64,000 bases of DNA from an uncultured Bacilli bacterium (lineage in GTDB: Bacteria; Bacillota_I; Bacilli_A; RF39; UBA660): assembly GCA_934148845.1 (NCBI GenBank), contig CAKPDH010000001.1, positions 98,939 to 162,938 of the forward strand, written 5' to 3'. Within the stretch, counting starts at the first letter, position 1; each line of letters opens with the position of its first letter. Below the pieces are notes generated by a model. That model ran no database searches, had not been told where the DNA came from, and saw only the letters and a list, made by a program, of their open reading frames with translations. Below are positions 4,826-49,102 of the stretch, piece by piece. The position numbers and the translations under genes are program-made.

Positions 4826-5032
4826 ATGCGTACGTTTTTAATAATTGTTTCAATATTACTAATAGCAATCGTGTTACTTCAAAGTGGTAAAGCAGAAGGT
4901 GCATCTTCAATTATTACTGGTGGTAATAATGATTTGTTTAAAAATAGAAAAGAAAGAGGAGGAGAGTTATTTATTACATATTTAACTGGAATCCTTGGTA
5001 TTATATTTTTAGCACTTTGTATAATTTTATAA
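4826..5032 (+). CDS. secG: Preprotein translocase subunit SecG
   Basis: 68 aa with two TM helices; MRTFLIIVSILLIAIVLLQSGKAEG..GG..LF...ER..L resembles the SecG consensus. RBS AGGAGG. Confidence 0.7.
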   Translation: MRTFLIIVSILLIAIVLLQSGKAEGASSIITGGNNDLFKNRKERGGELFITYLTGILGIIFLALCIIL

Positions 5033-5055
5033 GTTGAGTAATCAACTTTTTTTTT
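5032..5055 (+). terminator. Rho-independent terminator after secG
   Basis: AGTTGA-gtaa-TCAACT followed by T9. Confidence 0.65.
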
Positions 5056-5113
5056 AAAATTGTTTTTTTTTATATTTAAATATGTTAAACTATATATATT
5101 GAAAGGTGATTTT

Positions 5114-6388
5114 ATGAGTGTTTTACCAGCAGATACATTTATCGTTGTAAATAAGACAATTTTGTGTGATAATGATAGAAAATTATTAACGCTTTTATAT
5201 CAGCCAATAATTGGCTCACAAGCTATAAGTCTTTATTATACATTATGGGCTTATTTAGATAAAACTGAATTAATGTCAAATGAATGGACTCATCATCATA
5301 TATTAAGGGATATGATGATAAGTAATTTAGAATTCTGTGATGCTAAAGTAAAATTAGAAGCTATAGGTCTTATGAAAACATATTTAAAGAAAAACAATAT
5401 AAATAATTATATTTATGAATTATATTCTCCTTTAAATGCTTCTGAATTTATAAATAATCCTTTATTAAATATGGCTCTTTTTAATGCAGTAGGAAAACTT
5501 GAATATGAAAGAATTGTAAGTTATTTTAAGATTCCTAAAATAAATTTAAGAGAATATGAAGATATAACCAGTAAATTTAGTGATGTATTTGCGTTTTCAA
5601 ATATAGCTTATAATGATAATTTGATTTATGATATAAAAAAATCAAATTATAGAAAACTAGAAATATTATCAAAAATAGATATAAATACAATATTAAGTTT
5701 AATAAGTGATGATATTTTAAATAAAAAATCTCTTACTAGAGATACTAAAGATCTTTTATTTAAAATTGCATATATCTATAATTATTCAAATGATGATATG
5801 ATAGAACTAATTAGAAATTCTATATCAGAAAAACATACTATTGATAAAAAATTACTTCAAGAGAATGCTAATAAATATTATAGATATGACAATATGGGTA
5901 AACTACCAAGTATAATATATAAAAATCAACCAGAATATTTAAGAGAACAATCTTCTGATACTTCAAATAGATCACGTATGATACATTTATTTGAAACAAC
6001 AAGTCCATATGATTTTATATGTAGTAAATATAAAACAGGAAGACCAACAAGCTCTGATTTAAATATTATCTCATACTTACTTATAGATTTAAATTTAAAA
6101 CCAGGGGTTGTTAATGTTTTAGTTGATTATGTTTTAAAAATAAATAATAATAAGCTTATTAAATCTTTTGTTGAGGTGATCGCATCTCAGTGGAGTAAGA
6201 GTGGAATTGAAACTGTTAATGATGCTATGGCTCTTGCAGAAAAAGAATATAAGAATAAGAAAACACTTAAAGATAAAGTAGTAAAAAAAGAAGCAATAAA
6301 ACCAGAGTGGTTTAATAAGAATGTAGAGCAAAGGGAAGCTACTGCTTCTGAAATAAGAATGTTAGAAGAACGTATGAAAAGGAGTTAG
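5114..6388 (+). CDS. dnaB: Replication initiation/membrane attachment protein (Bacillus-type DnaB, DnaD-like domains)
   Basis: About 425 aa, two DnaD-like regions (YQPIIGSQAISLYYTLW; ...SDLNIISYLLIDLNLKPGVVNVLVDYVL). Immediately upstream of, and translationally coupled to, the dnaI-like loader, as in the B. subtilis dnaB-dnaI operon. Start at the ATG at 5114, after the run of AT-rich codons. Confidence 0.6.
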   Translation: MSVLPADTFIVVNKTILCDNDRKLLTLLYQPIIGSQAISLYYTLWAYLDKTELMSNEWTHHHILRDMMISNLEFCDAKVKLEAIGLMKTYLKKNNINNYIYELYSPLNASEFINNPLLNMALFNAVGKLEYERIVSYFKIPKINLREYEDITSKFSDVFAFSNIAYNDNLIYDIKKSNYRKLEILSKIDINTILSLISDDILNKKSLTRDTKDLLFKIAYIYNYSNDDMIELIRNSISEKHTIDKKLLQENANKYYRYDNMGKLPSIIYKNQPEYLREQSSDTSNRSRMIHLFETTSPYDFICSKYKTGRPTSSDLNIISYLLIDLNLKPGVVNVLVDYVLKINNNKLIKSFVEVIASQWSKSGIETVNDAMALAEKEYKNKKTLKDKVVKKEAIKPEWFNKNVEQREATASEIRMLEERMKRS

Positions 6389-15459: not shown

Positions 15460-15825
15460 ATGAAAACAATTATTGTAGCAGATGATTCGATGATAGTAAA
15501 AAATATAGTTGAACAGGCTCTTATGGATGAATATGATGTAGTTAAAACATCAAGTGGAGCTGAAACATTAGATTTTATTATTAATAATAAAGATAAGGAT
15601 ATAAAAGGTTTATTACTTGATCTTAATATGCCTGGCACTGATGGCTTTATGGTTTTAAATTATTTTAAAAATGCTAATTTATTTCAAAAGATAAAAGTTT
15701 CAATAATATCTGGTGATGATACTAAAGAAACTATAGATAAAGCATTTACATATGATATAGTTGATATGCTAAATAAACCATTTAATAAAGCAAATATTAA
15801 AAATATAGTAAATAAAATGATATGA
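15460..15825 (+). CDS. Single-domain response regulator (CheY-like receiver only)
   Basis: 121 aa. Acidic pocket IIVADDS, phospho-acceptor LLLDLNMPGTDG, conserved S/T (IISGD) and K (LNKPF). No output domain. RBS AAAGGAG. Confidence 0.75.
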   Translation: MKTIIVADDSMIVKNIVEQALMDEYDVVKTSSGAETLDFIINNKDKDIKGLLLDLNMPGTDGFMVLNYFKNANLFQKIKVSIISGDDTKETIDKAFTYDIVDMLNKPFNKANIKNIVNKMI

Positions 15826-15942
15826 GTGTGTAAAGAATTCTATATAAATGGAATCTAACCACGATATTTTGAAACCTTAATTGGTTTTTTTATCTAAATA
15901 ATAACATATAATGTTTAATTTTCAAAGAATTAAATTTTTCTA

Positions 15943-16225
15943 TTAAACAAATAGATAATCCAGATAATATAGTTTCCAAATTTCTATATGCTTGATCCCT
16001 TTTAGATATATTTTTAAACATTTAAGTAATGCCATATCTGTTGGAAAAACAGATATGGTTTTATTAAATTTTCTATATTGTCTATTTAATTATTTGATTG
16101 TATTAGTTGTATACATAATTTTTCTAATTTCATTTGAGAATTGAAAAAATAGACAAATTGCATCCAATTTTCCTTCCTTTTGAATAATCAAATTCGGCGT
16201 TCATCATTTCTTATAATAATTTTAA
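15943..16225 (-). pseudogene. Remnant of an IS256/mutator-family transposase (C-terminal about 90 codons, with internal stop and frameshift)
   Basis: Minus-strand translation gives ..FFQFSNEIRKLCIQLIQSNN*IDNIEN.. and, in another frame, NRQYRKFNKTISVFPTDMALLKCLKIYLKGIKHIEIW. These match the conserved C-terminal block of IS256-family transposases (F.FP.eIRK.IYTTNaIEslN.q.RK..k...vFP.d.aalKl.yL......kW). No upstream catalytic region and no terminal inverted repeats found. Confidence 0.45.
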
Positions 16226-16373
16226 TATTTCTTTCCGCTTGCTATTTTTCCCATAATAAAAACCTCTCCATTTCTTTTATTTTATTATAGAAATAAAGGC
16301 TCAATTATATTGAAATATGATTAATTTAATTCAAAATAATTAATTTCCTTGTATTTATATAATTAGTTTTAGT

Positions 16374-16397
16374 ATAAAAAAACAACCATTAGGTTGT
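16374..16397 (-). terminator. Terminator of the HTH gene
   Basis: On the minus strand, ACAACC-taat-GGTTGT followed by T7. Confidence 0.55.
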
Positions 16398-16407
16398 ATA
16401 TAAATTA

Positions 16408-16647
16408 TTATTTATTAAAATTCATTTGATTAAATATATCAGTATCATAAAACTCTGCCATAGTTATTCCAAAAACTCTGCACATTTTATATATATTTTT
16501 GGAACTAGGATTTTCTACTTTATCATTTAGTAACGCAAAAAGAGTTGCTACTGGTACAGTGGAAAGTTCTGATAACTTGTTTGGAGTAATATGGTTTTTT
16601 TTACATAATTCTAGTATTCTATTAATAATTGCCTGTGTGAAAGACAT
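16408..16647 (-). CDS. XRE-family helix-turn-helix transcriptional regulator (79 aa)
   Basis: ILELCKKNHITPNKLSELSTVPVATLFALLNDK is a Cro/C1-type HTH. RBS AAAGGAGG. Divergent from the pseudo-receiver gene. Confidence 0.6.
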   Translation of the reverse strand: MSFTQAIINRILELCKKNHITPNKLSELSTVPVATLFALLNDKVENPSSKNIYKMCRVFGITMAEFYDTDIFNQMNFNK

Positions 16648-16706
16648 ATTATAGGCCTCCTTTGTCTAAATGTAATTATATCAAATTATTATTAAAAATA
16701 TCTCTT

Positions 16707-16792
16707 GATTTCAATAAATTTATCGAAAACAAGAACATTTTTTTAACATAAATAATTTTTTTATTGAAATCAGTAGAACTTTTATCGAAATC
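16707..16792. repeat. Array of four 12-bp motifs TTTATYGAAAWC (one inverted) in the divergent promoter region
   Basis: GATTTCAATAAA (16707-16718, inverted), TTTATCGAAAAC (16719-16730), TTTATTGAAATC (16759-16770), TTTATCGAAATC (16781-16792). The first two form a 24-bp near-palindrome. The last copy ends 2 bp before the -35 of the downstream promoter. Centre-to-centre spacing is 12/40/22 bp. Confidence 0.55.
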
Positions 16793-16794
16793 GG

Positions 16795-16822
16795 TTGACT
16801 TTTTTGATAAAAAAAGTATAAT
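16795..16822 (+). promoter_or_regulatory. Sigma-A type promoter of the pseudo-receiver gene
   Basis: TTGACT -35, 16-nt spacer, TATAAT -10. Confidence 0.55.
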
Positions 16823-16911
16823 AAATCTTGTATCAGATTTAGTTTATTTTTATTTAACAACTCATTTAATCAAAAGGTAAAACTCTTGATACATAAATGT
16901 AGGTGATAATT

Positions 16912-17478
16912 ATGAATCAAAAAGAAAAAAAATATAATGAAAACAAAATAAGTTTATTTTTCTATAATAAAACAGTTCATGAAAAAAGTAAAAGTAAAAT
17001 TAGTAATTTATCAAAATATAAACCTAACAGAAAAATATATGTTTTACTTGGTGATAATTATGAACCAATGGCAATTATTACTAATTCTATATTAGAAAGC
17101 ATAGGTTGTAAAACGACAATTGTTCCTAGTGTTAGTTCTTTAGTTCAAGAATTTAAAGAAAATAAGGATAAATATAATGTAATAATTACAAATAATATTT
17201 ATTCAAATAAAGGTACAGGAGTAGATGCTTTAAAATTAGTTAAAAAGCAGAAAAAAGATATTAAAGTTATTGTATTGGCAGTAGAAAAAAATCAAACAAA
17301 GCATTTTATTAATTTTTTAGGATTTGATGGATATTTAGAAAAACCGTTAAGTCAAAGAAAAGCTATTTCTATATTATCATCATTAATTCCAAACATAATA
17401 TTTAAAAAAATAGAACCTAAGTATTATATAAATAATAATAAAAATATAAATAAAAAATATAAAATTGATAAATATTGA
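16912..17478 (+). CDS. Pseudo-receiver (Asp-less CheY-like) domain protein
   Basis: KIYVLLGDN..MAIITNSILESIGCKTTIVPSVSSLVQEF...KYNVIITNNIYSNKGTGVDALKLVKK...IKVIVLAVEKN...FDGYLEKPLS follows the receiver-domain pattern, but the phospho-acceptor Asp is Asn (VIITNN) and the conserved T/S is Ala. N- and C-terminal Lys/Asn-rich tails. RBS AGGTGAT before the ATG at 16912. Confidence 0.45.
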   Translation: MNQKEKKYNENKISLFFYNKTVHEKSKSKISNLSKYKPNRKIYVLLGDNYEPMAIITNSILESIGCKTTIVPSVSSLVQEFKENKDKYNVIITNNIYSNKGTGVDALKLVKKQKKDIKVIVLAVEKNQTKHFINFLGFDGYLEKPLSQRKAISILSSLIPNIIFKKIEPKYYINNNKNINKKYKIDKY

Positions 17479-17641
17479 TTTTATATTTTTTATTTATATA
17501 AAATTCCTCATAAAAATATTTTAAAATTATATCTAAAAACAGTTATGTAATATAAATAAAATTAAAATTTTTAAATATACGTAAAAAATATTTATTAAAA
17601 TTAAAGGTTATGATATAATGTAATAGAAAGGAGAAAAAATA

Positions 17642-20600
17642 ATGAACAAATCGAACTTAGTCAAAAAATTGACTATGATATTATTTACATTAGTAGCAAT
17701 CTTTGCTGTAGGATTAACTAATGTAAATGCAGAAACAACAACTGCAGTTGTTGAAGATCGAGATGCATTAGTAAAAAAGATGGATGATAAAACAACAGAT
17801 ATAGTTAGACTTAATAATAATATTGAACTATCAAGCGAATATAATACAACTTTCTCTATTGAAAAGTCAAAAACACTTGATTTAAATGGTCACACTATAA
17901 CTGTACCAGATGGTAAAGAAATTAATTTTTGGTATTATGCAGATGCTGATATTAAAATAATGAATTCTAGCAATAGTAGTTCTGCAAAAATTATTGGTAA
18001 TCATACTGGTTCATCGACCTATTTTTTGTTGCGTGGAGCAATTATTCGTGATGCAGAAAAGGTAAACTTTGAGATTGACGGTGTTGATTTTGAAGTGAAA
18101 AACAGTAATTTTACTACCATTGTTTTTATGAAAAATGGGCAAAAATATGAAAATCTCATTATAAAAAATTCTAATGTTAATGGGAATCAGTACTTATTTT
18201 GGTCTGGTGCTGCTAAAAAAGTTTATTTGGAAAGTATAACTTTAAACCGTGCTGAAGGTGCTGATAGAAATCTATATAGACAACTTAGTAATACTTCTTC
18301 TTTAACTGTTAATGATGTAATTGATGCCAATGCTGTTGTTGAGTATTATCCTAGTCGTGGTGTAAAAGCTACTGCTGATAGAACAGCAATACTTAATACT
18401 TCTGATCTTAATGCTTATTGGGGTCCAATAACAGTTAAATTTGCAAATGGATTTAATGTATCTAATGCTTCTTTAACTGGTAAATATGGTGAAACACCTG
18501 AGGCTAATATTACAATTAAAAATGTTGGTGAAAATAATTTACAAATTAAAAATGTAACAGTATCTGAACCTACAAAATTTGAAATCATTGGACCAACACA
18601 ACCAACAGTAATTGCTGGTACAACAAATACTGATTTTAAAGTAAAAGCAAAAGAAGGACTTTCTGTTGGTAATTATACTGCAACAATTACTGTAACTGAT
18701 ATGGGTGGTAAAACATATACAGCAACAGTTACATTAGTAGTTGAGAAAAAACAATTAGATGGTTTAGGTGCTGGATTTACTAGCAACTGGACTTATGGCG
18801 AAACAGCATTAGAACCTAACATTTCTGGTGTTGATTCACTAGGAGCAGATGAATACAAAGTTGAATATGCTAAAGCTGGTACTGATGATTGGAGTACAAT
18901 TAAACCTACTACAGCAGGAGATTATACAATTAGATTAACTATTACAGGATCTAATTATAAAACTGGTACTGCATCTTCAACGTTTAAGATTTTACCTACT
19001 GAAAAGGAAGTTAAAATTGTTGCTAATTCATCTAGTCATCAATATGATGGAAATGCTTATACTGATAATGGATATAAAATTTACTTTGATGGAACAGAAG
19101 TTACTGATGGTAAATTATTATATGATGATATTATTGGCAATGTAAAAATTAATGGTAGTGTTACTGATGTAGCTGATAATACTACTGTTGAAAACAATTT
19201 AATTGATAGATATAGTTATACAATTACAAATAAAGAAAGTTACAAAAATATTAAGTTAGTAGCTGGTAATATCAAAATCACACCAATTCCAACATCAATA
19301 GTTGTAAAAGCTGATTCAGATACTAAGGTATATGATGGTACTGAATTAACAAAAAATACTTATACATATACTGATGGTGTATTATTAGCTGGTGATACAT
19401 TAGAAGCTACAATTACTGGTAGCCAAAAATTTGTAGGTTCTTCAAATAATACTGTAAACAATGTTAAAGTAAAGAGAGATGGAAAAGATATTACTGATAA
19501 CTATACATTTGGAACTCATACATTTGGAAAACTAACAGTAACAAGTGCAGAACAACCTTTAGCAATTGCAGATCAATATGTAAAAGTTAATGGTTCTATA
19601 TTATTAAGTGATTTAGAACAAGAAGTAACTGGAGATGTAGGAAACATTGATTTTGCTATTAAATCAGGAACAGCACTTACATATGATGCTACAAATGATG
19701 AATATGTAGCAGGAGCAACTGCAGGAGATGTTGTAATGACAGTTACAGCAGTAAAAGTAAACCTTGGTGGAGATGATACACCTGAATGGAAAGAAACATC
19801 AAAAGACTTTACAGTTCATGTTGTAAATAAAGAAAATGTAACAATTACTGGTTTAGAGGATAATCAAGTATTTACTTTTGATAATACTACTAAAACTCCA
19901 TGGGGAACAGGCACAATTACAGTTGAAGATAATAAAGTCAATGTAAATGAATTAGAGATATTTTACAATGGAACTGGTAGCACAACATATAGTAGTAAGT
20001 TTGCTCCAGTAGATGCAGGTACTTATACAATAACTTATAAAGTTAAAGATAGTAATCCTGACTATGTAGGAAGTGTAACTTATGCTTTCACAATTAAGAA
20101 AGCACAATTAAATAAGCCAACTGCTAGTACAACATCATTTGTATATGATGGTACAAGTAAAGGATATAGTTCATTCCATGATACTGAAACATTTGAATTT
20201 ACAGGTACTAATACTGCTACAAATGTAGGTAATTATAGTCTTACAATATCTTTAAAAGATAAAGATAATTATGAGTGGGTTGGTGGTACAACTACTGATG
20301 TAGTTATTAACTGGTCTATTACTCAAGCAACACCTAATTATACAGTACCTACTGGGCTTGTTGGTGTTAAAGGTGATTTCTTAAGAAGCATTGCACTTCC
20401 TTATGGATTTACTTGGAATAATCCTAATGAGTTATTAAATGCTGGAACTCATACTTATAAAGCTACATATACACCTGCAGATACAACAAATTATAAAACA
20501 GTAACAGACATTGATGTAACTGTTGTTGTAAAAAATAAATTTGTTTTAGTAGGAATTGTTAATGGTGGAAATGGTACAATAAGCGTTTCTAGTCTAGAAG

Positions 20601-21391
20601 TATTAGAAGGAGAAAAAGCAGAAGTTGTATTTACACCAGATACTGGTTATATGATTGACAAAGTTCTTGTTGAAGAAACTGAAGTTGAAGTTACTGGTAA
20701 TAAATTAGAACTTACTATGGATGGAAATAAATTAGTTACAGTAAGTTATAAGAAAATACCATTTACAGTAACTGTTAAAGATGTAACTGGTGCTACTGTT
20801 ACTCCAAATGGAGCTGTTAGTGTAAATTATGGTGATAATAAAGAATTCACAATCACAGTTAATAGTGGTTATAAATTAGTTAAAGTTTTAGTAAATGGAA
20901 CTGATAAAACTGCTGATATGGTTGATGATAAATTAACACTTTCAAACATTACTGCTAATATGGAATTAGAAGCAGTTGTAGAAAAAATAGTTTATGAAGT
21001 AACTGAAGGAGCTAATCAAAAATATACAATTACTAAAAATAGTGAAGCTAAATTCAAAATAAATGCTGACTTTAGATTATTTGATGATGGTAAAGTATAT
21101 GTTGATAATGAATTAGTTGATCCTAAAAATTATACAGCAGAATCAGGGAGCACAATAATTACATTAAAGAAGGAATTTGTTGATACATTATCAGTTGGAG
21201 AACATACTTTAAAAGTATTATTCAATGATGGTGGAGAAGCAACAACAAAATTTACTGTAGCAAGAGTAACAGTGCCTACTGATAATCCAAATACTGGAGA
21301 TAATATTGGATTCTATATAATAAGTGGAATCTTATCAATCGTAGGACTTGCTTTAATTGGAATCTTTTATAGAAGAAAACAGACAAATTAA
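17642..21391 (+). CDS. Large cell-wall-anchored surface protein (putative adhesin) with Ig-like/MBG-type repeats, divergent InlB-B-type repeats and a C-terminal NPNTG sorting signal
   Basis: Sec signal peptide (..GLTNVNA|ETT). N-terminal region rich in N/S/G, possibly beta-helical. Multiple repeats of the form GTYTITYKVKDSNPDYVG.. / NYSLTISLKDKDNY.. and GNGTISVSS..GYMIDKVLV.. / TVTPNGAVSVNYGDN..GYKLVKVLVNG. C-terminus ..VPTDNPNTGDNIGFYIISGILSIVGLALIGIFYRRKQTN = sorting motif + TM + basic tail. Confidence 0.7.
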   Translation: MNKSNLVKKLTMILFTLVAIFAVGLTNVNAETTTAVVEDRDALVKKMDDKTTDIVRLNNNIELSSEYNTTFSIEKSKTLDLNGHTITVPDGKEINFWYYADADIKIMNSSNSSSAKIIGNHTGSSTYFLLRGAIIRDAEKVNFEIDGVDFEVKNSNFTTIVFMKNGQKYENLIIKNSNVNGNQYLFWSGAAKKVYLESITLNRAEGADRNLYRQLSNTSSLTVNDVIDANAVVEYYPSRGVKATADRTAILNTSDLNAYWGPITVKFANGFNVSNASLTGKYGETPEANITIKNVGENNLQIKNVTVSEPTKFEIIGPTQPTVIAGTTNTDFKVKAKEGLSVGNYTATITVTDMGGKTYTATVTLVVEKKQLDGLGAGFTSNWTYGETALEPNISGVDSLGADEYKVEYAKAGTDDWSTIKPTTAGDYTIRLTITGSNYKTGTASSTFKILPTEKEVKIVANSSSHQYDGNAYTDNGYKIYFDGTEVTDGKLLYDDIIGNVKINGSVTDVADNTTVENNLIDRYSYTITNKESYKNIKLVAGNIKITPIPTSIVVKADSDTKVYDGTELTKNTYTYTDGVLLAGDTLEATITGSQKFVGSSNNTVNNVKVKRDGKDITDNYTFGTHTFGKLTVTSAEQPLAIADQYVKVNGSILLSDLEQEVTGDVGNIDFAIKSGTALTYDATNDEYVAGATAGDVVMTVTAVKVNLGGDDTPEWKETSKDFTVHVVNKENVTITGLEDNQVFTFDNTTKTPWGTGTITVEDNKVNVNELEIFYNGTGSTTYSSKFAPVDAGTYTITYKVKDSNPDYVGSVTYAFTIKKAQLNKPTASTTSFVYDGTSKGYSSFHDTETFEFTGTNTATNVGNYSLTISLKDKDNYEWVGGTTTDVVINWSITQATPNYTVPTGLVGVKGDFLRSIALPYGFTWNNPNELLNAGTHTYKATYTPADTTNYKTVTDIDVTVVVKNKFVLVGIVNGGNGTISVSSLEVLEGEKAEVVFTPDTGYMIDKVLVEETEVEVTGNKLELTMDGNKLVTVSYKKIPFTVTVKDVTGATVTPNGAVSVNYGDNKEFTITVNSGYKLVKVLVNGTDKTADMVDDKLTLSNITANMELEAVVEKIVYEVTEGANQKYTITKNSEAKFKINADFRLFDDGKVYVDNELVDPKNYTAESGSTIITLKKEFVDTLSVGEHTLKVLFNDGGEATTKFTVARVTVPTDNPNTGDNIGFYIISGILSIVGLALIGIFYRRKQTN

Positions 21392-21396
21392 ACTGT

Positions 21397-21425
21397 GAGT
21401 TAGAGTTTTCTCTAACTCCTTTTTA
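21397..21425 (+). terminator. Rho-independent terminator after the adhesin gene
   Basis: GAGTTAGAG-tttt-CTCTAACTC followed by CTTTTT. Confidence 0.7.
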
Positions 21426-21434
21426 ATATAAAAT

Positions 21435-21944
21435 TTGAGGGATGGTAATGTGAAAAAGACAAAATTAAAGATAAAGAAACTATCTAAAAAACAAATTATC
21501 ATTATTTCAAGTATTCTTCTAGTTGTTATACTAATTATTGTTTTACTATCACAAAAAGAACCATATGTTGGTAAAATAAAGGATGGTAAAGTAGTGTACA
21601 TTGATAGAGTTAAAAATGTAACAGTATATCCTGAAAAAAATAAGACATTAATAGAGTTTGAGAATAATGAGGAACTTATTGATAATTGTATAATATCAAA
21701 TGAAATATATGATAAATTTAAGAGTAATGATCCACTTTATAATATAACAGTTAAAGACTATTCTAAATTATCTAACTTATCAGCTAAAGAAAATTATAAT
21801 ATAAATAAATCTTTACAATTAAAGTTAGTAAAAGAAGATGATAGTTATGCTGATTATTATGCAATGACTTGTGGATTTAAAAATAAAGAAGAACTTATGA
21901 AATATACAAAGGCAGTTATAAAACTTGCTAATGAAGCTAAATAA
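21435..21944 (+). CDS. Membrane-anchored hypothetical protein (169 aa)
   Basis: Single N-terminal TM (IIIISSILLVVILIIVLL), extracytoplasmic C-terminal domain with one Cys pair. The start is ambiguous (ATG 21435 or GTG 21450; GAGGGA RBS precedes the GTG). Confidence 0.4.
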   Translation: MRDGNVKKTKLKIKKLSKKQIIIISSILLVVILIIVLLSQKEPYVGKIKDGKVVYIDRVKNVTVYPEKNKTLIEFENNEELIDNCIISNEIYDKFKSNDPLYNITVKDYSKLSNLSAKENYNINKSLQLKLVKEDDSYADYYAMTCGFKNKEELMKYTKAVIKLANEAK

Positions 21945-22031
21945 TAACTAAATTAAAAAACACGATAAAATTAAATAAATGTTTTAAAATAAAGAATTTT
22001 ATAGTATAATAAAATTAGAGGAGGAGTGAAT

Positions 22032-23183
22032 ATGTCTAATAATGGCAAAAAAAGTATAATTATTGGAGCAATTTTTGGCATTTTATTGCTTACAATTGTT
22101 ATAATTTTATCTTGGTTTTTAAATCGAAAGTTTGATGTTACTTTTGATTTAGATAACGGTACTAAAAATGAAGTAGTACAAGTTAAATATAATAAAACCA
22201 TAAACAAAAAAAATGTCAAAGATCAAAAAGAGCTAGGTGAATTATTTATAGGCTGGTATGAAGTAGTTGATGTTAAAGATAAAAAAGATATTTTAGCAAA
22301 AAAAGAATTTGATTTTAAAACTAAAATTAATAGAAATGTTAAATTAAAAGCAGTTTATGAACAAAAGCCAAAAACTATTACTATTACATTTGATTCTAAA
22401 GGAGGAAGTAAAGTTGAACCTATTACCATAAATGAAGGTTCAGAATTAATATTACCAAAAAATCCAACTTATAGTGGATACACATTTAAATGTTGGGAGG
22501 ACAAGAATGAAAAACCAATTTACAATAATGTAGTATTAGCAGAAGATACAACTTTATATGCTAAATGGGAAAAAGATGAGCCTAAAAAGTCAAATACTAA
22601 AAAGGATGAGTCTAAAAAGTCAAATACTAAAAAAGAAGATCAAAAAAAAGATAAGCCAAAAGAAGTTGTATATTACTGTGATTCAGGATATGTTTTAGAA
22701 GGAACTAAATGTACTAAAACAGAAAAGAAAATCTCTGAGATTATTTATTCTTGTAGTTCACCTTACAGTTTATCTATAGATGATAAATGTATTGATATTA
22801 CTAAGAAAACGGATTTAGTAAAAGTATGTGCAGAATATAAAGGATATAAAGGAGTAATTGCTCAAGGAAGTCCATTATGTTTCTATCATGATATAGGTCC
22901 AGGTAGTAGTTATCAAGAATGTGTATCTATACATAATAGTCAAGAAGTAGGACAATATAATGGAAGATGCTATGAATTTAAAAAAATGAAAGATGATAAT
23001 AGCAACAATTTAATAATAAGTTCTTGTCCTGAAGGCTATACAGAATTTCGACCATCAACATCAAGTAATCCTGTATGTGGTAAATCTGTAAATGCAAAAA
23101 AAACTTATGCGTGTCCTAGTGGATACCGTTTATCTGGCAAAAATTGTTTAAAGACAGTAACTGTTGATGCTAAGAAAAAATAA
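22032..23183 (+). CDS. Membrane-anchored surface protein with two Listeria-Bacteroides (Flg_new) repeats and a triple Cys-containing repeat
   Basis: N-terminal TM. VTFDLDNG..FIGWYEV and TITFDSKGGSKVEPITINEGS..YSGYTFKCWED..LYAKWE are typical Flg_new repeats. Lys-rich linker (KKSNTKKDE x2). Then three copies of C.SGY.L.G..C (YYCDSGYVLEGTKC; YSCSSPYSLSIDDKC; YACPSGYRLSGKNC). RBS GAGGAGG before the ATG at 22032. Confidence 0.55.
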   Translation: MSNNGKKSIIIGAIFGILLLTIVIILSWFLNRKFDVTFDLDNGTKNEVVQVKYNKTINKKNVKDQKELGELFIGWYEVVDVKDKKDILAKKEFDFKTKINRNVKLKAVYEQKPKTITITFDSKGGSKVEPITINEGSELILPKNPTYSGYTFKCWEDKNEKPIYNNVVLAEDTTLYAKWEKDEPKKSNTKKDESKKSNTKKEDQKKDKPKEVVYYCDSGYVLEGTKCTKTEKKISEIIYSCSSPYSLSIDDKCIDITKKTDLVKVCAEYKGYKGVIAQGSPLCFYHDIGPGSSYQECVSIHNSQEVGQYNGRCYEFKKMKDDNSNNLIISSCPEGYTEFRPSTSSNPVCGKSVNAKKTYACPSGYRLSGKNCLKTVTVDAKKK

Positions 23184-23597: not shown

Positions 23598-24392
23598 ATG
23601 AATATTAAAAAAATAGTTAAAATAATTATTTTAATTGCTTTTATAAGCGTAATATGTATATTTACATATGTATTGTCTATGAATAAGAAAATTAATCTTC
23701 CTAAAATGGATGAATTTAAAGAGATAATACTAAAAGAGAATGATAAGATATTTGTTATTGATGGAAAGAAAGATATAGAAAATATATATAAAATTTTAAA
23801 AGATAAGAAGTCTATAAAAAAAAGTATTGAAGATACTCCAAAAGGTGTAAAATCATTTGTAAAAATATCATTTGTTATAAATGATTCTGAAAAAAATAAA
23901 ATGAATATTTATACAAAAAACGATAGCTATTATATTGAAGAACCATATAACAGAATATTTAAACTAAGTAAAGAGGAATATGAGAATATTGTTAATTATA
24001 TATCTAGCCCATATACTATTGGCAAATTATCTAATTATAACATTACTAATGATAAGATAATTATGGAGATAAAAGAAGACTCTAGTATGAATAAAAAAAT
24101 TAATTTAACTATAAAAAATATGACAAATAAAATTTATGAATATGGTGAAGAGTATTTTATTGAAATAAAAAAAGATGGTGGATGGTATAAATTAAAGTGG
24201 GTAAATGAACCTGAATTTAATTTAATATTACATTTAATTAAAGGGGAAGAAACAACTACAGATATTATTGATGTATCATTTAAAGATTTATTAGGAAAAG
24301 GTAAATATAGACTCGTAAAATCTTTTAGTGAGAAAAATGCAACAGAAGATATTGAAACAGTATATGCTGCCGCTGAATTTGAAATAAAATAA
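23598..24392 (+). CDS. Membrane-anchored hypothetical protein (264 aa)
   Basis: N-terminal TM (IILIAFISVICIFTYVL), Lys/Glu-rich extracytoplasmic domain. RBS GGAGAAA. No recognisable catalytic motif. Confidence 0.45.
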   Translation: MNIKKIVKIIILIAFISVICIFTYVLSMNKKINLPKMDEFKEIILKENDKIFVIDGKKDIENIYKILKDKKSIKKSIEDTPKGVKSFVKISFVINDSEKNKMNIYTKNDSYYIEEPYNRIFKLSKEEYENIVNYISSPYTIGKLSNYNITNDKIIMEIKEDSSMNKKINLTIKNMTNKIYEYGEEYFIEIKKDGGWYKLKWVNEPEFNLILHLIKGEETTTDIIDVSFKDLLGKGKYRLVKSFSEKNATEDIETVYAAAEFEIK

Positions 24393-48121: not shown

Positions 48122-49102
48122 ATGATTGATAAATTATTTATGAGAGTACTTGGAGCAATATCATCGGCGCTTATAATAGTATCTGTTTTTGTACCTTTTT
48201 CAACTATTGTAGATACGGGTCTTTTTGAATTATATGATAATCTAGACATGATTTATGTACCTATTACAATAATTGTATTTGGTGCAATTGGCGTACTAGC
48301 ATTTTCAATTAATATAAAAACAGAATTTGCATATACAACTGTAGGTGCTATTTCATTCTTTTTAATTATGCAAACTATGGAAGTATTAAATAATGGAGTA
48401 GGATTAAGTAAGTTTAGTTTAGGTTATTATTTCTTACTTATTGGTGATTTATTAACTCTTATATTTACATTTTTATCTAATTTAAAGCGAAAAAAAAGTG
48501 TATCACCAGTTATTATAGAAGATAATTCAAGTATTCCAGTGTCAAATCAAAATATATATAGTAATTTACAAGGTGTAAATCAAGTGCCTCAAACGCCAAA
48601 TATACAACCACAAGGATTAAATATGGCAGTAAATAATCAAATGCAAGTACCTAATTTAGGTATAAATAATCAAATACAACCACAAGTACCTATACAGCCT
48701 ATAAATCAAAATATAAATCCTATAAGTTTAGATCAAACACCTGGATTGAATTCAAATTTAACTAATACTAAGCAAATTAATCAAGTATCACAAGAACCTA
48801 TAAATAATTTAAATCCAAATCCTATAGGTTTAGAACCAATACCAGAGTTAAATGTAAATTTAACTTCACTTAATAGTAATATTCCACCTATCGCACCTGT
48901 TATTCAACCTCAAAATGAAACTGTAGATATGCCTAAAATGAATCCAGTGCTTGCTGAATTTACAAATAATAATATTCAACAAGTTCAAAATAATAAGTCC
49001 AAGAGTACAAATACTTTTTTAAATAATCAGGTAAATCAGACTAATACAAATAACCAATCAAATAGTACTGCACCATCGTCATTGGATATATTTGGAAGAT
49101 AA
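48122..49102 (+). CDS. Membrane protein with a Q/N/P-rich low-complexity C-terminal tail (hypothetical)
   Basis: 4 predicted TM helices in the first 130 aa, then about 190 aa rich in Gln/Asn/Pro/Ile (..NIQPQGLNMAVNNQMQVPNLGINNQIQPQVPIQP..). RBS GTAGGGA. Confidence 0.45.
   Translation: MIDKLFMRVLGAISSALIIVSVFVPFSTIVDTGLFELYDNLDMIYVPITIIVFGAIGVLAFSINIKTEFAYTTVGAISFFLIMQTMEVLNNGVGLSKFSLGYYFLLIGDLLTLIFTFLSNLKRKKSVSPVIIEDNSSIPVSNQNIYSNLQGVNQVPQTPNIQPQGLNMAVNNQMQVPNLGINNQIQPQVPIQPINQNINPISLDQTPGLNSNLTNTKQINQVSQEPINNLNPNPIGLEPIPELNVNLTSLNSNIPPIAPVIQPQNETVDMPKMNPVLAEFTNNNIQQVQNNKSKSTNTFLNNQVNQTNTNNQSNSTAPSSLDIFGR

Follow-up and report, generated by a model that had tools for sequence, protein, structure and literature searches.

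A probable local XRE repressor-operator switch beside an Asp-less pseudo-receiver gene in an uncultured gut Bacilli bacterium

The window considered here, i.e., the whole 64-kb stretch of DNA analyzed from an uncultured Bacilli bacterium, is very AT-rich (GC ~25%), and nearly all of its long open reading frames (ORFs) lie on the plus strand. It contains two divergently transcribed genes, encoding a 79-amino-acid (aa) helix-turn-helix (HTH) protein of the XRE type at 16408-16647 (minus strand) and a 188-aa receiver-like protein at 16912-17478 (plus strand), which are separated by a 264-bp intergenic region carrying short dyad repeats. The pair is flanked by housekeeping genes (DnaB/DnaI-like, leucyl-tRNA synthetase LeuRS, UppS, RsmH, GatA/B) and its surroundings read as core chromosome; no prophage was found around it when the surrounding ORFs were scanned. 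The HTH gene and the dyads probably form a local repressor-operator switch governing the receiver-like gene, on the basis of the following features.

16382-16397, minus strand: intrinsic terminator of the HTH gene, a hairpin (ACAACCTAATGGTTGT) with a T-run after it (terminator scan), conserved in the related loci L003, L005, L011, and L014
16408-16647, minus strand: 79-aa Cro/C1 (XRE)-type HTH gene (Pfam), the proposed operator-binding regulator, with Shine-Dalgarno sequence AGGAGG at 16656-16661
16675-16704, minus strand: predicted HTH promoter, with extended -10 TGATATAAT at 16675-16683, an 18-bp spacer, and a weak -35 GAGATA at 16699-16704
16704-16715: dyad 1, CTTGATTTCAAT, with arms TTGA/TCAA, the HTH-proximal dyad, having one base in common with the weak -35 of the HTH promoter and its centre at ~-41.5 of the predicted start
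16707-16718 (minus strand), 16719-16730, 16760-16771, and 16781-16792: exact copies of the 12-mer TTTATYGAAAWC
16719-16730, plus strand: second of these copies, TTTATCGAAAAC, a half-site only (YGAAAAC), the CAAG to its right completing no dyad
16763-16774: dyad 3, ATTGAAATCAGT, an exact match to AYYGAAATCRGT, 21 bp from dyad 4 and centered at about -61 of the receiver-gene promoter
16784-16795: dyad 4, ATCGAAATCGGT, centered at about -40 and overlapping the -35 hexamer TTGACT by one base, the T at 16795
16795-16822, plus strand: pseudo-receiver promoter, with -35 TTGACT at 16795-16800, a 16-bp spacer, and -10 TATAAT at 16817-16822
16829-16911, plus strand: predicted 5' leader of ~83 nt, its start inferred from the -10, with Shine-Dalgarno sequence AGGTGA at 16901-16906
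16912-17478, plus strand: 188-aa stand-alone Asp-less receiver gene, with an N-terminal helix, a core at ~35-167, and a disordered Lys/Asn-rich tail

For the organism itself the analysis covered these 64 kb, and relatives were gathered by three scans. One genome per species was searched with the 188-aa protein, giving 19 related loci, all from metagenome-assembled genomes (MAGs) of uncultured gut Bacilli, 'Mollicutes' or Clostridia (e.g., Clostridium sp. CAG:710, Acholeplasma sp. CAG:878, UMGS1266). Searches with the HTH protein in metagenomes added 80 loci and a scan of viral contigs added 3, for a total comparison of ~100 related loci (L numbers; individual proteins bear P numbers).

An initial annotation of this DNA had pointed to four copies of a 12-bp motif between the two genes, and TTTATYGAAAWC is indeed found exactly four times in the window, always in the intergenic region and in helical-turn register, the direct copies starting 41 and 21 bp apart, or ~4 and ~2 turns. 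In a shuffle test 0.13 copies are expected and 0/100 shuffles reach 4, a statistic that is circular and post hoc, the pattern having been derived from the same four copies; with one mismatch allowed the count is 9, which is not above chance. Independent support for the motif lies in its conservation in other genomes. The relatives also redefine the repeat: the copies are real, but the functional unit, judging by these comparisons, is a 12-bp dyad (AYYGAAATCRGT, CTTGATTTCAAT), of which the 12-mer described initially is a version moved 3 bp to the left. Likewise, the 24-bp near-palindrome noted at 16707-16730 exists (10/12 positions self-complementary by direct reading), but its arm spacing differs by one base among relatives, so that it does not constitute a conserved unit and was rejected as a functional one. 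The second copy is conserved in relatives as TCTGAAAAC or CCGAAAAC. A motif search beyond the locus, which the initial annotation had proposed, gave no extra exact copies in the window, although the dyad is conserved in related loci. Exact AYYGAAATCRGT is limited to two sites, both in the intergenic region, and the relaxed pattern YYGAWWTCRR has four matches, three within 90 bp here and a fourth at 48746 that is within chance expectation; with respect to a wider regulon, these two scans of the window revealed no further dyads beyond chance.

The dyads are inherited together with the HTH gene. A dyad fused to a TTGAC -35 is found in 62/93 loci encoding an HTH homologue, versus one match in 537 kb of flanks (both strands), and it sits at fixed distances from the HTH start, with the one-base overlap between dyad and -35 kept across clades. 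In all clades the HTH-proximal dyad is found 52-63 bp ahead of the HTH start codon, and nearly all close relatives have their equivalent of dyad 1 at 55-57 bp, even where the right-hand side has been replaced; in L047 this position is a perfect palindrome, TTGAATTCAA. The counterpart of dyad 3 is ACTGAAATCGGT in relatives and ATTGAAATCGGT in the conspecific L103, and in general conservation is higher in the dyad cores than in the intervening spacers. In distant clades, perfect 12-bp palindromes (ACGGATATCCGT or ACCGATATCGGT) occupy the place equivalent to dyad 1 and, in addition, stand directly upstream of the TTGACT -35, with a second, weaker copy 23 bp further upstream. The dyad sequence tracks the recognition region of the HTH protein, TTGAwwTCAA occurring with VPVATLFALL and AC(C/G)GATATC(C/G)GT with (A/P)P(S/T)TL(R/Q).

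The genes behind the divergent promoter are far less constant than this core: the HTH gene and its operators stay together, and the downstream gene varies, being a pseudo-receiver gene in some loci. In seven relatives (L003, L005-L008, L011, L014) the HTH gene is divergently upstream and 90-95% identical, and the receiver-like gene only ~70%; the pair recurs in the distant L010, L012, and L016 with 43-53% identity for the HTH and 35-42% for the receiver. An XRE-type HTH gene is found upstream of the pseudo-receiver homologue in 7/9 distant genome loci and is homologous to that of the window in three of them. In eight close relatives (L001, L021, L025-27, L029, L040, and L042) promoter and leader precede an operon for a MacB/FtsX ABC permease, an ATPase and a PASTA-domain protein. 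The operator-promoter-leader block of ~220 bp is present twice in L001 (177-396 and 5743-5961, 87-94% identical), the first block before the transporter operon and the second before the pseudo-receiver gene, and other loci show unrelated downstream genes or deletions of dyads 3 and 4 with dyad 1 retained. Such portability is typical of a local regulator with its own operator. Because the dyad is inherited with the HTH gene at a steady distance and co-varies with it while the downstream gene is swapped, the HTH protein is the best candidate for the dyad binder. The initial suggestion of an operator array thus seems to hold for the divergent HTH protein, but not for the nearby CheY-like regulator at 15460, the other binder then considered, whose only Pfam match is PF00072 (residues 4-117) and in which no DNA-binding domain was detected.

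The assignment of the 79-aa protein to the XRE type, made in the initial annotation, is borne out by HTH_26 (PF13443; 36.6 bits, cut-off 22) and HTH_3 (PF01381; 26.5 bits, cut-off 23). Among solved structures it is closest to prophage Lp1 protein 11 (3B7H, E 5e-11) and the N-domain of SinR, and, its nearest kin being repressors of the phage and SinR types, it can be regarded as a protein of the phage-repressor type. Close relatives share 90-96% identity with it, at a dN/dS of 0.06-0.08. Two IMG/VR contigs classed as viral (L100, L101) encode at 5001-5231 an HTH protein of 74% identity; one ACCGAAATCAGT dyad precedes its start by 58 bp, and the divergent neighbor encodes a different, 191-aa XRE protein.

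Both genes have a recognizable promoter. The rightward one, TTGACT-16-TATAAT, is located where it had been reported and is the best sigma-70-like match in 15800-17700 (11/12 positions); it is kept in relatives as TTGACA-16-TATAAT, is near-consensus in every clade and, with this conservation, looks constitutive in the absence of a repressor. The leftward promoter was missed by the consensus scan because its -35 is weak; as read from the sequence, its ATTATATCA block is conserved in all close relatives. From the -10 elements, transcription is predicted to start at ~16668 (minus strand) and ~16829 (plus strand). The two promoters share a mirror-image plan of dyad, -35, spacer and -10, with dyad 4 on the rightward and dyad 1 on the leftward side.

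Regarding the 188-aa product, the CheY fold claimed at the outset is supported by PF00072 (33.0 bits, cut-off 30.2, residues 44-152), by a family profile that matches the receiver domains of CheY, CpxR, and YycF in the PDB, and by an AF2 model, a check proposed with the claim, that shows a (beta-alpha)5 receiver fold with five strand-helix pairs over residues 42-158. The model has a pLDDT of 73.7, mostly >80 in the core, with a low-confidence N-terminal helix and a disordered tail, and its top 50 Foldseek matches are nearly all receiver domains (target-normalized TM 0.75-0.83, root-mean-square deviation 2.2-3 A). Residues were mapped by an untrimmed hmmalign profile alignment checked against E. 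coli CheY, which places N94, A123, K144, D48, and G47 of the window protein opposite CheY D57 (the phospho-Asp), T87, K109, D13, and D12, respectively; in the model N94, A123, and K144 are at the C-terminal ends of strands 3, 4, and 5. The Asn noticed at the phospho-acceptor position is therefore N94, opposite D57. The Mg2+-binding acidic pair DD is also absent, being G47-D48 here, while the TNN, GFDGYLEKP, and D48 motifs are kept. The protein is thus recognized as a receiver without its phospho-Asp and falls, as had been proposed, under the published definitions of the Asp-less receiver (ALR) and the pseudo-receiver (PMC4395418; PMC12632262). With Asn in place of the phospho-Asp, canonical His-Asp phosphotransfer, already doubted in the initial annotation, is excluded for the 188-aa protein, which would then have to act via protein-protein contacts.

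These features are those of a family. An exhaustive profile search at E <= 1e-10 gave 420 sequences, each representing one 50%-identity cluster, and the counts below refer to the 121 members of 150-260 aa obtained from two protein searches together, among the matches listed. Asn is found at the phospho-site in 117/121 and Asp in only 2, so that homologues with an intact Asp, which could have called the claim into question, are rare; Thr or Ser precedes the Asn in 116/121, the Thr/Ser position is kept in 118/121 and the Lys in 117/121, and the first position of the acidic pair is Gly or Ala family-wide, the second mostly Asp. The lack of the conserved Thr/Ser that had also been noted is correct for this strain (A123), but not for its kin: the change (T123A) appears to be strain-private, because the 98%-identical conspecific P0001 carries Thr, as do 115/121 members. 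An N-terminal transmembrane helix (at ~residue 4) followed by a Lys/Glu-rich linker is present in 67/81 members outside the window clade versus 0/40 inside it, which suggests that this clade is a soluble, N-terminally shortened offshoot of a mostly membrane-tethered family. No specific model for the family was found in Pfam, NCBIfam or PADLOC, with NCBIfam giving only sub-threshold generic receiver matches, and no relative was found in viral contigs or in plasmid or phage record collections. A defense, phage or plasmid affiliation was rejected, there being no meaningful PADLOC matches and only unannotated PHROGs. In the window clade only P0041 (182 aa, 54% identical to the window protein) has Asp at the phospho-site (VITDN). 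As its second acidic position is Glu and both Thr and Lys are present, it may be a revertant or a retained phosphorylatable form.

The fate of the pseudo-receiver gene differs from that of its neighbor. Among 25 close orthologues, seven are intact (eight including the window copy) and the rest, ~17, are frameshifted, truncated or interrupted by stops, with identical lesions in independent assemblies (L031, L032, and L035; L048-L051). Decayed copies occur in L004, L006-L008, L011, L014, L030-L036, L046, and L048-L051, where the adjoining HTH gene is intact, and the lesions comprise frameshifts, several of them at A7-A8 tracts near codons 115-125, as well as deletions of the N-terminus or the promoter; the CAG:710 group has a stop past codon 39. 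MAG frameshifts can be artifacts, but their recurrence across assemblies argues against this; some lesions lie at poly-A tracts, where slipped-strand phase variation may play a part, and others are clear deletions. Against the seven intact orthologues, at dS 0.8-1.0, dN/dS is 0.17-0.23. The gene therefore seems to be under purifying selection where it survives, yet dispensable in many lineages, unlike the HTH gene.

Taken together, it is proposed that the 79-aa HTH protein, presumably as a dimer, would bind the 12-bp dyads of the intergenic region, where dyad 1 abuts the weak -35 of the HTH gene's own extended -10 promoter and dyads 3 and 4 are two helical turns apart, with dyad 4 sharing a base with the consensus -35. 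The most likely effect would be negative autoregulation together with repression, presumably lifted by an inducing signal, of an otherwise strong sigma-A-type promoter driving the single-domain receiver-fold protein. Repression is favored because the rightward promoter is near-consensus in every clade, a dyad shares a base with the -35 and the relatives of the HTH protein are phage or SinR-type repressors, and the probability of a local XRE repressor-operator switch governing the pseudo-receiver gene can be put at roughly 0.6. Several observations pull the other way: the dyads of the window clade are imperfect (4-5 of 6 complementary pairs), and the outer positions of dyad 1 differ from those of dyads 3 and 4; the receiver-side dyads are centered upstream of the core promoter and not over it; the HTH protein is without an obvious sensor domain; and, with about two thirds of the close orthologues decayed and the near-invariant Thr lost in the window copy, the regulated gene may be decaying.

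The positions of the dyads are equally those classically occupied by class II and class I activators, and an HTH protein acting on the same dyads as an activator, recruiting RNA polymerase via sigma region 4 from a class II position at ~-41 with the dyad at -61 acting cooperatively, has to be considered. Lambda cI at PRM and the controller proteins of restriction-modification systems at their own promoters act in this manner, and the centers counted from the -10 elements (~-41.5 for the HTH promoter, about -40 and -61 for the receiver promoter), the preserved dyad/-35 overlap and the poor -35 of the HTH promoter, usual for activator-dependent promoters, would all agree with it. Activation is nonetheless unlikely, as a receiver promoter with 11/12 consensus positions in this and other clades should need no activator, the -41.5 figures are soft, being counted from predicted starts, and the closest relatives are small single-domain Cro/SinR-type proteins, which are mostly repressors. 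Binding of the repeats by a different factor (the CheY-like protein, a global regulator, an alternative sigma), or their origin as a functionless by-product of duplication in AT-rich DNA, is very unlikely. Such DNA yields repeats easily, with 28 inverted-repeat pairs in 281 bp of the region; the dyad 1 and dyad 3 regions are extended duplicates matching at 20/24 positions, as duplication would leave; and TATCGAA resembles the Spo0A box, TGNCGAA. However, in clades that differ in their downstream genes the dyad still accompanies the HTH gene and co-varies with it, and its core is more conserved than the spacers; the CheY-like protein has neither a detected DNA-binding domain nor synteny with the pair. 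The motif was rejected as Spo0A boxes, the key G being absent in most relatives, and as an extracytoplasmic function (ECF)-type -35: promoters of the type TGAAAY-N16-CGTA (TGAAAC-N16-CGTA) do not fit, their downstream elements being missing when the sequence and its relatives are read. A 33-bp palindrome centered on the -35 (TTTATCGAAA...TTTTGATAAA) was also rejected; it is missing from distant clades that keep the 12-bp dyad, and the 28 inverted pairs in 281 bp show how readily such pairs arise here.

Other alternatives concern the pseudo-receiver rather than the operators. The gene could be a relic on its way to a pseudogene, its product inactive and only the HTH gene and operators under selection, in agreement with the recurrent lesions of its orthologues, the loss of the membrane helix in the whole window clade, T123A in this strain and the different operon that many relatives have behind the promoter. 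This can be entertained as a tentative possibility, set against an intact frame with a good Shine-Dalgarno sequence and a strong predicted promoter, the dN/dS values given above, a receiver core that is confidently folded in the AF2 model and the retention of TNN, GFDGYLEKP, and D48. Unconventional phosphorylation, on the neighboring Thr93 or after deamidation of Asn94 to Asp, is highly improbable. CheY D57N is reported to be phosphorylated on Ser56, and position 93 is Thr/Ser in 116/121 members, with D48 and K144 conserved. An Asn at the phospho-site can also revert to Asp by deamidation (Maule et al., 2015; PMC4395418), but RitR functioned unaltered after a change of Asn53 (PMC4395418), all of the family has Gly or Ala as the first acidic residue, the phosphoryl-coordinating Thr is Ala in this strain and, with regard to a histidine kinase, a scan of 12 ORFs between 12530 and 25327 gave neither a HisKA nor a HATPase match. 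Finally, the N-terminal membrane helix, the charged linker, the invariant T-N-N for the phospho-Asp and the usual location next to a divergent small XRE gene could mark the ~200-aa family as an undescribed signaling module of gut Firmicutes, in which a membrane-tethered pseudo-receiver would be the input device (e.g., an anti-repressor or sequestering partner) for a sensor-less XRE repressor and the window protein a soluble derivative; this is speculative and quite improbable.

As a local repressor with operators beside an Asp-less receiver, the pair can be compared to several known systems, and both the XRE local regulator and the Asn-subtype ALR are of known kinds, so that no new kind of system appears to be involved. 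Small HTH proteins of the same Pfam families are found in lambda cI/Cro, SinR, and 3B7H, and the lambda operators likewise comprise several dyads between divergent promoters at whole-helical-turn spacing, one abutting each -35. In contrast to lambda, the divergent gene encodes no second repressor here (receiver fold, no HTH), no prophage surrounds it, the dyad cores are of 12 rather than 17 bp and the cassette precedes unrelated downstream genes. The controller proteins C.PvuII and C.AhdI of restriction-modification systems are dimeric XRE HTH proteins of ~80 aa that autoregulate from tandem dyads directly upstream of their own -35, an arrangement and a protein size similar to those of the window; however, C genes are co-transcribed with the restriction endonuclease gene, whereas the HTH gene has its own terminator and a divergent target, with an insertion sequence (IS) remnant of the IS256 type and the CheY-like gene as neighbors. 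No restriction-modification genes are adjacent to it in the window, and we take the dyad sequence to be unrelated to the C-box. FrzS of Myxococcus combines a receiver-like domain without phospho-Asp with a long coiled coil at its C-terminus, and works through protein-protein interaction and localization. It resembles the window family in joining an Asp-less receiver-like domain to a helical or coiled-coil segment, but there is no sequence relationship beyond the fold, and the family has an N-terminal membrane helix with a charged linker, both lost in the window clade; FrzS is named among the papers using the term ALR (PMC9811614).

An ALR is defined as a receiver recognized computationally without the phospho-Asp, and a pseudo-receiver as one lacking any of the five active-site residues (PMC12632262; PMC4395418). 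Asn makes up 16% of ALR substitutions (PMC4395418), and RitR of Streptococcus pneumoniae is the archetype of the Asn subtype (Maule et al., 2015; PMC4395418). With RitR the window protein shares the PF00072 receiver fold, the Asn at the phospho-acceptor and, presumably, signaling independent of His-Asp phosphotransfer, but RitR has a DNA-binding output domain, whereas the window protein is a single receiver with an N-terminal helix and a disordered tail and its relatives are mostly membrane-anchored; the family also keeps TNN, the second acidic residue, Thr, and Lys, in a pattern that differs from that of RitR. Pseudo-receivers are common, but a 2025 review (PMC12632262) calls the on-off switching of the bacterial ones a mystery still. 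In this respect the subfamily is compact, with ~120 members listed among the 150 best matches at 50% identity, Asn fixed at the phospho-site and Thr, Lys, and one acidic residue retained, and many members have as partner a small XRE regulator for which comparative data directly give the operator. This makes for a simple system, open to testing, in a low-GC group of human gut Bacilli that is otherwise uncultured. With regard to annotation, the 79-aa protein can be described as a local regulator with defined predicted operators, and the 188-aa protein should not be labeled a phosphorylatable response regulator. The whole would be a real, conserved local gene switch, but of an ordinary kind.

To the left of the HTH gene lie three further features.

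15460-15825, plus strand: 121-aa stand-alone CheY-like receiver with all five active-site residues (DD 8-9, D54, S82, K104; read from the sequence)
~15946-16251, minus strand: degraded IS256/Mutator-family transposase, with several stops (PF00872, E 1.2e-08, profile positions 315-370, C-terminal), the IS remnant of the initial annotation
16306-16317: possible decayed fifth dyad, ATTGAAATATGA (8/12 positions), past the HTH terminator at ~-335, a degenerate remnant in the window

In none of the 19 related genome loci do the 6-kb flanks contain the CheY-like gene, which appears to be unrelated to the pair. The IS256-type remnant was not seen in L003, L005, L011 or L014; in L014 a different short reverse-strand ORF, ISL3-like by eye only, is found at its position. 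The left flank of the HTH gene thus looks rearrangement-prone, and the idea of an acquired module uniting the CheY-like gene, the IS, the HTH gene and the pseudo-receiver gene had to be abandoned, as only the HTH gene, the operators and, variably, the pseudo-receiver gene are conserved together and the flanks are core chromosome. Other dyads in ~540 kb of related DNA are confined to a single fixed position immediately behind the HTH terminator and are found there in 19 loci (L003, L005, L011, L021-22, L024-25, L027-32, L035, L037-39, L042, L044), as perfect ACTGAAATCGGT or ATTGAAATCGGT at 311-321 bp from the HTH start. The HTH gene of those relatives is bracketed by operators ~430 bp apart, which could allow DNA looping or be a duplication relic.

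The leader of the pseudo-receiver gene is conserved in relatives and, in L001, duplicated along with the promoter. A known RNA element was sought in the leader and the intergenic region, with no Rfam match at E <= 1, and a structured leader was rejected, the single-sequence fold being no better than shuffles (z = -0.70); the consensus fold of nine leaders is weak (-7.2 kcal/mol), with only wobble-type changes in its closing stem. A conserved inverted repeat, TTGTATCA ... TGATACA (16827-16834, 16886-16893), brackets the predicted leader; in relatives the 3' arm is TGGTACA, so that pairing would be kept only as RNA G-U, with no double compensatory changes.

In distant clades (L016:8265-11792, the flanks of L064 and L072, and L018:6570-7520) the cassette and membrane-anchored pseudo-receivers are found beside genes that, by eye only, look defense- or mobile-like. 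Among them are an ATPase of 1175 aa that has a GSGKSHF P-loop and is similar to BREX BrxC/PglY, an ORF of 316 aa similar to a Mob/Pre-type relaxase, and ORFs of a replication-relaxation-like kind. The transporter operon of L001 is followed by a 401-aa ORF that is IS110-like, also by eye only. In the window itself, three plus-strand genes (17642-23183) lie between the pseudo-receiver gene and a DUF5301/Big_14 gene at 23598. They encode a secreted repeat protein of 1249 aa that carries an anchor-like helix at its C-terminus, an ORF of 169 aa and a protein of 385 aa containing a Listeria-Bacteroides repeat. In relatives the homologue of the 23598 gene is much closer, beginning only ~0.5-2.3 kb past the pseudo-receiver match, which gives these surface-protein genes the look of a lineage-specific insertion.

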